Part shown: positions 54,001 to 55,911 of the stretch, piece after piece
Numbering within the stretch: the first letter of the stretch is position 1
How the letters are laid out: every line of letters starts with the position of its first letter
From: Escherichia phage vB_EcoS_phi330
Sequence record: PV189401.1
Strand: one strand, 5' to 3'
DNA length: 55,911 nucleotides
Position numbers: made by a program

Positions 54001-55911
54001 GGCTTATACCCTACACGGGATAACTTAACTGATATCCTTTTTAACGGATAAAGGTATTCAAGCCTGACACATCATGCGCTGTATCGTCGCTGTATTTCCG
54101 CATTAACCATGACCGTAGCCCGACGGGGAATTCCTTCTGCGCGAGTGTGCGGGGATAATCAAAAACGATACACACCGGGGTTTACCGCGTAAACGGAGCG
54201 CGGCGTTCTCCCCTCATGGTCGCCCGTCCGGTGCGATGGTGGAAGAAACTGGAATCTGTTCAATAAAAAAACTGCCGTGTTGGAGTCACAGCAGTAATGT
54301 ACTGATTGGGTAGAAGATTATTATTGTTATGCTTTATTTTTATTCTATATGGCTGATTATTTCAATTCGGAATTAATACAGCTAATGTCTGTGATTTTTT
54401 ATAAATTCAGCAATATAAAGAAATAGTTATATGAACAGCCATCGCAGAGCATACTGTGTATCATTCTTTTTTATAGTCAACTGACGGGCATATTTTATGT
54501 CTGCTGCCAGCTCCCGGCGGCAAGATTCAATGACCCACGCAGAAAAATTTTCTGAACCTTTCTGGTCAAGAGCGATGTTAATTTGTTCAATCATCTGGTT
54601 TGGAAATCGGATGTTGCGGGTTGTTGTTCTGCGGGTCCGGTTTTTCGATGACATTTTCTTTCCTCTGGTGACAAGTTATATGGCGAGGATTTTACATGGC
54701 TGTGCTTCGTACGTTACCGGGCAGAATCAAAACTCTGAACACCCGGCGGGTGAATGTCCTGAAGGGTGAACAGCGTCGTGTCAGTGGCAGTGCCCGGGTT
54801 TCCCTCAAGCGTCGTATCTGGCTCAGGGATGCCGGACAGTGCTGTCTCTGTGGGCGTGTGGTTGACCTTTGTGACAGTGAACTCGATCACCGCATTGCAC
54901 TTCAGTTCGGTGGTGGTAATGAGGAGACGAATCTCTGGACGCTCTGTACCGAATGCCATCGACAAAAGTCTGCTCGTGAAGCGGCGGGTGGTATGCCGGA
55001 CCCGACGCTGCCGGAGGTGTCCGGAGGTCATGGCAGGGCAGACGATATCATCGGACTGTGACCCGCCCTGGGGGGGGGGATCATCCGGCGAAAAAACGAT
55101 CGCCCCGGACACCGCCCCCCGTCTCACGCAGAGAAAAAATTCCCGTTTCAGGGCAGTTAACATGTTAACTGGCTGTCCGGGCATTTTTGCGGTTTTTATC
55201 TTTATTATTCAGTTTGTTGTGCGGAAAAAATGTTAACTGGCTTTTTCAGCAAATGTTAACCAGGCAGCAGTTAACATTTGCGGCATGAGACGCCGGGAAA
55301 AATGGGCTGAACCATACCCGGCTGAGTGCGTTCTGGACCCGGGAGGAGGCTGTGCTGACAACGCAAAAACGAAAATTTGCGCTGGCGCTCATGTCCGGGA
55401 AAAACAAAACAGCGTCAGCCATTGCCGCCGGTTATTCGGCGAAGACCGCCAGGGTTAAAGGCTCGCAGCTGGCAAAAGATCCGGAGGTGCTCGCGTTTAT
55501 AGCCCGTAAACAGTGCGAAACGGTGGAGGTGGATGAGGTTCCTGTTTACCGGCAGAAAAAATCAGAGCAGGAGGATAAACCCCGTCGCCGTGAGGTGGCT
55601 GCAATACCACAGCCGGACGAAAAAAATCCGGAGATGCCTCCGCCCGCGGTGATATCTCATGGTATTGAATATATGGAGGATGGTCTTCCCGATCCGGTGA
55701 AAGCGATGGGGCGTCTTCTGGTGGAGAACATTAATACCGACCCCAGGCTGGCGCTGGATGCGGCTTATAAGCTGGCGCAGTTCACGCACCACAAAAAAGG
55801 GGATGCCGGTAAAAAATCGGCAAAAGGTGACGCGGCGAAAAAAGCGGCTAACCGTTTTGCGGTGCCACCACCACCCCGCCTGGTGGTGAATAATGATAAT
55901 GAGGGCAACGG

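Follow-up and report, generated by a model that had tools for sequence, protein, structure and literature searches.

The 290-bp spacer between an HNH endonuclease gene and the small terminase gene terS of Escherichia phage vB_EcoS_phi330 (record PV189401.1; the whole 55,911-nt stretch is referred to as the window) appears to be an HK97-type cohesive-end (cos) site built of three layers, namely a cleavage core, a recognition array and terS itself, a reading to which we assign a probability of roughly 80%. The window is a Shiga toxin (Stx)-converting lambdoid prophage. The Stx2-converting phage 1717 is 99% identical to its packaging region, and the same region is 94–99% identical in BP-4795, 2851, YYZ-2008 and dozens of Stx1a, Stx2a and Stx2c prophages. 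Of 5426 complete E. coli genomes, 1244 contain the spacer, in at most 7 copies per genome and with no annotation on it, and it is nearly invariant among 67 distinct relatives. A preliminary description of the window had proposed it as a cos region, pointing to a G10 tract, a C6 run, a perfect 18-bp palindrome and three further copies of the palindrome core, one of them inverted. All of these features are present (Table 1), and the proposal itself agrees with the mapped virion ends of phage Lys8385Vzw, which break exactly at the equivalent of window position 55122/55123.

Lys8385Vzw is an Stx1 siphophage related to phage 1717. PhageTerm analysis of virion DNA from the induced phage identified a phage of the cos type whose cohesive ends are 3' and read CGCCCCCCCT (Zhang et al. 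2021, PMC7946995); the paper gives this 10-mer only, and neither the G tract nor the repeats (PMC7946995). The corresponding record, MT225100, terminates in ...GGGGGGGATCATCCGGCGAAAAAAACGATCGCTCCGGACAC-CGCCCCCCCT, with GGACAC directly before the 10-mer, and opens with CTCACGCAGAGAAAAAATTCCCGTTTCAGGGCAGTTAACATGTTAACTGG... (first bases CTCACGCAGAG) at the base equivalent to 55123. Its first 306 nt align to window positions 55123–55428 with 0 mismatches, and 12 mismatches are found over 789 nt. Because the record ends with the mapped 10-mer and restarts identically to 55123–55428, we placed the cut of the window at 55113–55122, where the predicted nicks would fall after 55122 on the top strand and opposite 55112/55113 on the bottom strand, exposing the overhang CGCCCCCCGT. 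Two independent lines, homology and the end mapping of the sibling phage, converge on this position and support it. The predicted cut is thereby in the C run, and in neither the G10 tract nor the palindromes; the C6 run had merely been listed in the preliminary description and turns out to lie inside the putative cohesive end.

More distant phages have the same organization. The record of Burkholderia phage Bcep176 has the homologous 10-mer CGCACGTTCC at both ends, followed by CTCACGCGCAGAAAATTTTCCC, and this terminal pair is one cohesive end written twice. Among relatives whose TerS is 37–50% identical (from Enterobacter, Atlantibacter, Kluyvera, Kosakonia, Serratia, Erwinia, Pantoea, Citrobacter, Buttiauxella and Proteus), ~92 nt just upstream of terS are strongly conserved and the DNA farther upstream is unrelated. 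We rejected Burkholderia records of the vB_CB2a type as end evidence, as they start ~21 nt before terS, and phiE125 as a direct model, of which only the right end is comparable, the TerS and left end being non-homologous. Contig ends in IMG/VR were not used as virion ends because these are mostly draft isolate genomes in which ends are assembly breaks, and nearly all of the phage-collection matches listed are prophage-derived, with the site in the middle of the record, so that they are uninformative on ends.

TerL and the HNH gene also point to the HK97 type. In the sister prophage L152, the only PDB match of TerL is HK97 TerL (6Z6D, E 4e-10), and the protein contains the Pfam domains TerL_ATPase and TerL_nuclease; it is 96% identical to TerL of L234, a prophage with the motif type of the window. 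The HNH gene lies directly upstream of cos and terS, with the terS start 290 bp downstream of it, which is the arrangement that defines an HK97-type cos site, and HK97, SfV, phiE125 and Bcep176 also carry an HNH gene at the right genome end. In HK97, the overhangs are 3' and 10 nt long, and gp74, an HNH protein, stimulates cleavage at cos (PMC9410871). The general role in cos cleavage of HK97-like phages that the preliminary description ascribed to HNH proteins thus agrees with published work (PMC9410871, PMC11331095).

An alignment of known or recorded ends revealed a G-rich run at a nearly constant distance from the overhang, measured from the 3' edge of the run to the first base of the overhang. 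This distance is 32 nt in HK97 (G9; overhang CGCCGCCAAA), 31 nt in SfV (GGGGAGGGGCGGG; overhang TGCCCGCCCC, which is the 10-mer of SfI, PMC3636060), 32 nt in phiE125 (GGGGAGGGGGG; overhang CGCCCGCTTC, ends from PMC2920897), 33 nt in Bcep176 (GGGGAGGGGG; overhang CGCACGTTCC), 34 nt in Lys8385Vzw (G7; overhang CGCCCCCCCT) and 33 nt in the window (G10; overhang CGCCCCCCGT). The first base of the SfI 10-mer has been reported to be different in SfV (PMC3636060). A G-rich run 31–35 bp upstream of the overhang is also present in 18 enterobacterial relatives and in the satellite-like islands described below. The pattern of a C-rich 10-mer with a G-rich tract 31–35 bp upstream was derived here from the aligned known ends and has no published definition. 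The run keeps its 3' edge and varies at its 5' edge; in 77 loci picked solely for TerS similarity, it is 5–11 G long, with a mode of 7–8. Because the tract occupies the same position in HK97, SfV, phiE125 and Bcep176, it is, as judged from the alignment, a conserved part of HK97-type cos sites located inside the last-packaged end. The preliminary description had regarded the G10 tract as a site of length variation or sequencing error; the length indeed varies, but the conserved position indicates that the tract is not merely an error-prone homopolymer.

The remainder of the core is similarly constrained. The bases immediately before the overhang are GAC or CAC in HK97, phiE125, Bcep176 and the family of the window. 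The cos site of SfV and SfI has GGAC right before the overhang, and with it the G-tract rule also covers a phage whose TerS is of the P27 type. A CGATCG palindrome at 55097–55102, in the stretch from the G tract to the cut, is shared by many enterobacterial relatives (...ATCGATCGCC...) and does not occur in the Serratia, Erwinia or Burkholderia versions.

On the packaged-first side of the cut lies an array of five half-sites. Counted from the left end (55123 = +1), these are located at +34 (−), +41 (+), +109 (+), +132 (+) and +148 (−), and the array spans +32 to +157. Of the window's six ATGTTAAC copies, five fall within 125 bp, with 1.57 copies expected window-wide; 0 of 100 shuffles reached six copies, and the Poisson probability of at least five in a given 125 bp is ~4e-15. 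The clustering therefore exceeds chance. The first half-site is located at +33/+34 in every lineage, and the centre spacings of 7, 66–68, 23–24 and 16 bp are conserved between lineages. The second of these spacings reflects the conserved length of the 56-bp spacer (66–68 bp centre to centre), whose T tracts are also found in lineages with the other motif described below, and the DNA at 55172–55227 probably allows a bend.

Comparison with relatives suggests where the palindrome came from. In Salmonella phage FSL SP-016 (HNH 71% and TerS 50% identical) and other relatives, the core runs directly into GGAGGGTGTAAAC-ATG-TTA-ACA, where terS has its ribosome site and its first codons (Met-Leu-Thr). 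This terS-start sequence is near-palindromic in the relatives, and in Serratia and Rouxiella it becomes the perfect palindrome TTAACATGTTAA. Relatives that lack the extension between the palindrome and terS have GTAAAC-ATG-TTAAC, a Shine–Dalgarno sequence and terS start, at the palindrome position. The palindrome of the window lies at exactly this ancestral position, and the present start, GTG CTG ACA, is ~190 bp downstream. Read in this alignment, the palindrome is the ancestral terS ribosome site and start codon, from which terS is separated in this lineage by ~190 bp containing the other sites. Three short open reading frames (ORFs) begin at ATGTTAAC copies, encoding MLTGCPGIFAVFIFIIQFVVRKKC (55162–55236), MLTGFFSKC (55230–55259) and MLTRQQLTFAA (55253–55288); they are most likely by-products of the ancestral terS-start motif and not genes.

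The sequence of the half-sites varies together with TerS. In the E. coli sister prophages L152, L153, L244 and L151, whose TerS is 69–88% identical to that of phage 1717, the positions and spacings of the half-sites are kept, and every copy is TGTTTAT or TGTTTAC, not TGTTAAC; the palindrome is TATAAACATGTTTATA in L152 and the imperfect TATAAACATGTTTACA in L244. A member of a distant lineage with an extension of its own, L245, carries seven copies of the TGTTTAT type. Residue 35 of TerS is Val or Ile where the half-site is TGTTAAC (the window, L234, L236, L240 and L246), Cys where it is TGTTTAY (L152, L244, L151 and, independently, L245) and Ser in the relatives without the extension, which have mixed half-sites at the terS start codon. 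These Ser35 relatives also contain an extra pair, TGTTTAY-N9-GTAAACA, inside terS at +206/+222, with the same N9 geometry as sites 4 and 5 of the window, and they have 3–7 motif hits per 630 nt compared with a background of 0.32 per kb. In L122–L140 and L247, the pair within terS (+206 to +228) encodes a conserved peptide, NVYTPAVN, whose conservation may be owed to the DNA site.

An AlphaFold2 model of the window TerS has residues 1–56 at a predicted local distance difference test score of 92–95, with helices at 19–25 and 33–41. The best PDB fold match of this N-terminal domain is the DNA-binding domain of SF6 TerS (4ZC3, TM score 0.84, root-mean-square deviation 1.6 Å), and a profile search with TerS also matched 4ZC3 and 3ZQP. 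In the model, residues 30, 32 and 35 fall where the predicted recognition helix begins. We infer that the helix-turn-helix (HTH) of TerS binds the five half-sites, and we propose that residue 35 of the recognition helix may recognize base 5 of TGTT(A/T)A. The suggestion in the preliminary description that the repeats are good candidates for terminase-binding sites is strengthened, at the level of sequence comparison, by the concerted motif change, the conserved spacing, the covariation with the TerS helix and the repeats of the satellite-like islands. Other candidate readers of the repeats were considered: the DUF3950 protein encoded upstream and TerL were rejected, as their variants do not follow the motif type, and the HNH protein, which identity alone would leave as a candidate, is absent from the repeat-bearing islands.

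Table 1 Features of the HNH–terS region of the window and its flanking genes.
Feature	Position	Strand	Description
DUF3950 ORF	54427–54654	−	75 aa, YlcI/YnfO type; ribbon-helix-helix-like N-terminus; divergent from HNH
HNH endonuclease gene	54696–55061	+	121 aa; last gene before cos; Pfam HNH, E 7e-7
G10 tract	55070–55079	+	Upstream (right-end) cos element; 3' end 33 bp before overhang
33-bp spacer	55080–55112	+	G tract to cut; A6 tract at 55091–55096; ends in GGACAC; register conserved in alignment
Putative cosN	55113–55122	+	Predicted 10-nt 3' cohesive end CGCCCCCCGT, includes the C6 run; by homology to Lys8385Vzw ends
C6 run	55115–55120		Within putative cosN
Left-end box	55123–55145	+	CTCACGCAGAGAAAAAATTCCCG; first bases packaged; conserved in phages from Bcep176 to those of E. 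coli, and in satellite-like islands
Palindrome (sites 1 and 2)	55154–55171	.	CAGTTAACATGTTAACTG; perfect, 18 bp; two inverted TGTTAAC half-sites; +32 to +49 from left end
56-bp spacer	55172–55227	+	T5/T5/T3 tracts, then A6 tract; 61% A+T; possible bend between site groups
Site 3	55228–55237	+	AAATGTTAAC
Site 4	55251–55260	+	AAATGTTAAC; inverted pair with site 5, 9 bp between half-sites
Site 5	55270–55279	−	Inverted copy, GTTAACATTT
terS Shine–Dalgarno	55341–55349	+	GGGAGGAGG; direct reading of sequence
terS	55352–55911	+	Codons 1–186 of 187 (truncated by the window end); GTG start at 55352; Pfam Terminase_2

Two types of satellite-like island in E. coli share the cutting core of the window. 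One type encodes a D5_N/DUF5906 primase or an AAA_25 protein, a TerS homolog and a capsid-like ORF, and the other encodes AlpA and a TerS homolog. In both, the core consists of G7–9, 33 nt and CGCCCCCCGT or CGCGCCCCCT, followed by CTCAT..AGAAAA. The islands lack the DUF3950 and HNH genes and have repeats of their own, AAAGTTACAC (GTTACAC type), the first copy of which is again located at +33 from the cut; their TerS has a different HTH and a C-terminal half resembling that of Stx-phage TerS. A shared core combined with separate repeats and TerS is what would be expected if the core is read by a shared TerL and HNH protein and the repeats by the TerS of each element. These islands may be cos-type, TerS-encoding satellites of Stx-like phages. 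Individual examples are L148–L150 (about 2250–2500) and L238–L239 (L238 about 1640–2017), which have the TerS homolog P0058 or P0053 (46–49% identical), a primase or AlpA and, in some, a capsid-like ORF, and which adjoin an AIDA/Ag43-type autotransporter gene. One such island carries a 10-mer identical to CGCCCCCCGT of the window.

In the mechanism that we propose, the cleavage core (55070–55145) comprises the G tract, the 33-bp spacer, CGCCCCCCGT and the left-end box CTCACGCAGAGAAAAAATTCCCG, and TerL together with the adjacent HNH protein would introduce nicks staggered by 10 nt to generate 3' overhangs. The recognition array (55154–55279), consisting of the palindrome, the T-tract spacer, one direct site and the inverted pair, would be bound by the HTH domains of oligomeric TerS, with the DNA probably bent or wrapped. 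This putative layer would mark the DNA as phage DNA and present the cut site to TerL, in the manner of lambda cosB, after which packaging would proceed rightwards into terS and terL. For the G tract, which comes to lie within the right (last-packaged) end at 33 bp from the cut, the probable role is to position or trigger the cutting complex at termination, by analogy with lambda cosQ.

A broader and more tentative extension, which we hold to be somewhat less probable than its opposite, is that HK97-type cos sites are modular, combining a universal cutting module (TerL and HNH) with a swappable TerS half-site array that satellites exploit. If so, the G tract, ~three helical turns upstream of the C-rich 10-mer, would be a termination or positioning element like cosQ; residue 35 would set TGTTAAC versus TGTTTAY in an array of 7-bp half-sites; and satellites would keep the cutting module of the helper while using their own TerS and array to redirect the packaging of Stx-type phages.

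The repeats could instead be operators that control translation or transcription of the terS/packaging operon through TerS or another small DNA-binding protein. In relatives that lack the extension, the terS Shine–Dalgarno sequence and ATG overlap with the first palindrome, a classic position for autoregulation, and a gene for a ribbon-helix-helix-like DUF3950 protein is located just upstream. The sites in the window, however, lie 75–200 bp upstream of the terS start and do not overlap it, no promoter-like signal above shuffled expectation was detected in the spacer, and the DUF3950 variants do not follow the motif type. The satellite-like islands, without DUF3950 and HNH genes, still have repeats by their own TerS with the first copy at +33 from the cut. 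As the distance is fixed from the cut and not from the gene start, it argues for packaging, and we consider operators unlikely. Still less credible is that the copies are non-functional relics of duplicated terS 5' ends (ATG TTA AC = Met-Leu-Thr). In FSL SP-016 and 18 other relatives, the terS start does align with the palindrome, and short ORFs beginning with MLT occur at three copies, but relics would decay independently, whereas the copies here switch together and keep their spacing in a spacer that is almost invariant in 67 distinct relatives; in addition, one copy is inverted, and relatives have further copies inside terS.

The least probable of the readings, with very little weight in our assessment, is an SPP1-type headful (pac) initiation site in which G10 would be no more than an error-prone homopolymer. 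TerS proteins of the SPP1 type bind multiple sites within and near the gene that encodes them, TerS of the window matches Pfam Terminase_2 (G1P), and its best structural match is an SF6/SPP1-like DNA-binding domain. Against this, the TerL of the sister prophages matches HK97 TerL only, an HNH gene is adjacent, the position of the G tract is conserved across distant cos phages, and the virion ends of a near-identical phage were, by PhageTerm, fixed and cohesive with 3' overhangs (PMC7946995).

Several points weigh against an HK97-type cos site with a TerS-bound array. The ends of the window are read across from a sibling, and the 10-mer of the window differs by one base from the mapped one (G for C at 55121); terL lies beyond the window and was typed in sister prophages only. 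Part of the covariation could reflect linkage or co-inheritance because the repeats and the TerS domain are <300 bp apart, and the independent lineages are few, with two for Cys35 and one clade for each of the others. No match to the IHF consensus WATCAANNNNTTR, with up to 1 mismatch allowed, was found in 55062–55351, and any bending of the array would therefore be intrinsic. The left-end box could also be the primary TerS site and the GTTAAC repeats accessory, because the box is kept regardless of the TerS HTH variant and HK97 TerS binds 15–29 bp from the cut, beside an A tract (PMC11331095).

The cos site of Lys8385Vzw is among the closest known counterparts, sharing the HNH–cos–terS order and the right-end G tract, spacer and C-rich 10-mer; it differs in its overhang (CGCCCCCCCT instead of CGCCCCCCGT) and in having G7 instead of G10. 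HK97 resembles the window in its right-end HNH gene, its G9 tract, which precedes a CGCC... 10-mer by 32 bp, its TerL type and an A/T tract shortly after the cut. It differs in that its TerS belongs to another family, its left end is non-homologous, its terS lies 49 bp from the end (229 bp in the window) and it has no known repeat array. The cos site of Bcep176 (Stanholtvirus) comes with a homologous TerS (38% identical), an upstream HNH gene and the same core, with a G tract, 33 bp and the 10-mer followed by CTCACGCGCAGAAAA..TTCCC, but it lacks the extension and the GTTAAC array, and terS starts ~45 bp after the overhang.

In lambda, cosB contains the sites R3-I1-R2-R1 between cosN and Nu1, and a separate cosQ lies on the last-packaged side. 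Lambda has 12-nt 5' overhangs, a winged-helix TerS (Nu1) and an IHF site and, to our knowledge, its cos cutting needs no HNH protein. The window resembles cosB in having short repeats of mixed orientation between the cut and terS, together with an upstream element. Its five repeats, which TerS is predicted to bind, have conserved geometry and covary with the TerS HTH. Unlike lambda, it has no IHF match in the spacer and a Terminase_2/SF6-like TerS, and the overhang of its sibling is 3' (PMC7946995). With SPP1/SF6 G1P, the window shares the TerS family and DNA-binding fold (Terminase_2, N-terminal HTH), and the multiple sites in or near terS recall pacL/pacR, being inside terS in relatives of the window. 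SPP1, however, packages by the headful mechanism, whereas the sibling of the window has fixed cohesive ends (PMC7946995) and the sister TerL is of the HK97 type.

That a cos site should lie between HNH and terS was to be expected, and the 10-mer had already been published for the sibling phage, so the core finding is known. The points on the G tract, the half-site array, the origin of the palindrome and the satellites are testable refinements within a known kind of system. In the literature that we searched, we found no account that assigns the G tract to HK97-type cos sites in general, no half-site array with a proposed TerS specificity residue, no origin of the palindrome as an ancestral terS start and no satellite-like islands sharing this cut site. 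The spacer includes the packaging module of many Stx1, Stx2a and Stx2c phages, and knowledge of the cut position and specificity parts allows prophage genomes to be correctly oriented and annotated and helps to judge which prophages are still packageable, some having, for example, an insertion sequence (IS) element in the G tract. It also provides a basis for inexpensive tests of TerS specificity and of the ways in which satellites that encode TerS might divert the packaging of Stx phages. Short-read assembly may be troubled here by the variable G tract.

Relatives were collected in several scans. A genome-contig scan with a single TerS gave no relatives, and a TerS alignment as the query recovered them; a viral-contig scan with the TerS alignment returned only relatives that are 92–99% identical, which were used for the G-tract statistics and not for diversity. 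A scan of the 290-bp spacer for a promoter or terminator gave nothing above shuffled expectation. Among the flanking genes, the HNH protein is 71% identical to that of FSL SP-016, which is encoded at the equivalent position, and the full-length terS product is 187 aa in phage 1717. The position of the DUF3950 ORF is kept in sister prophages, where its variants do not follow the repeat type. In L250 (1046–2504; LC567822.1, PPompW prophage), the IS110-family element ISEc20 has G runs on either side (...CTTTCGGGGGGG, IS, GGGGGATCATCC...), and its right flank is the cos G tract, equivalent to window position ~55075. This prophage is probably packaging-defective because the HNH and lysis genes are missing there, and ISEc20 may target G tracts.

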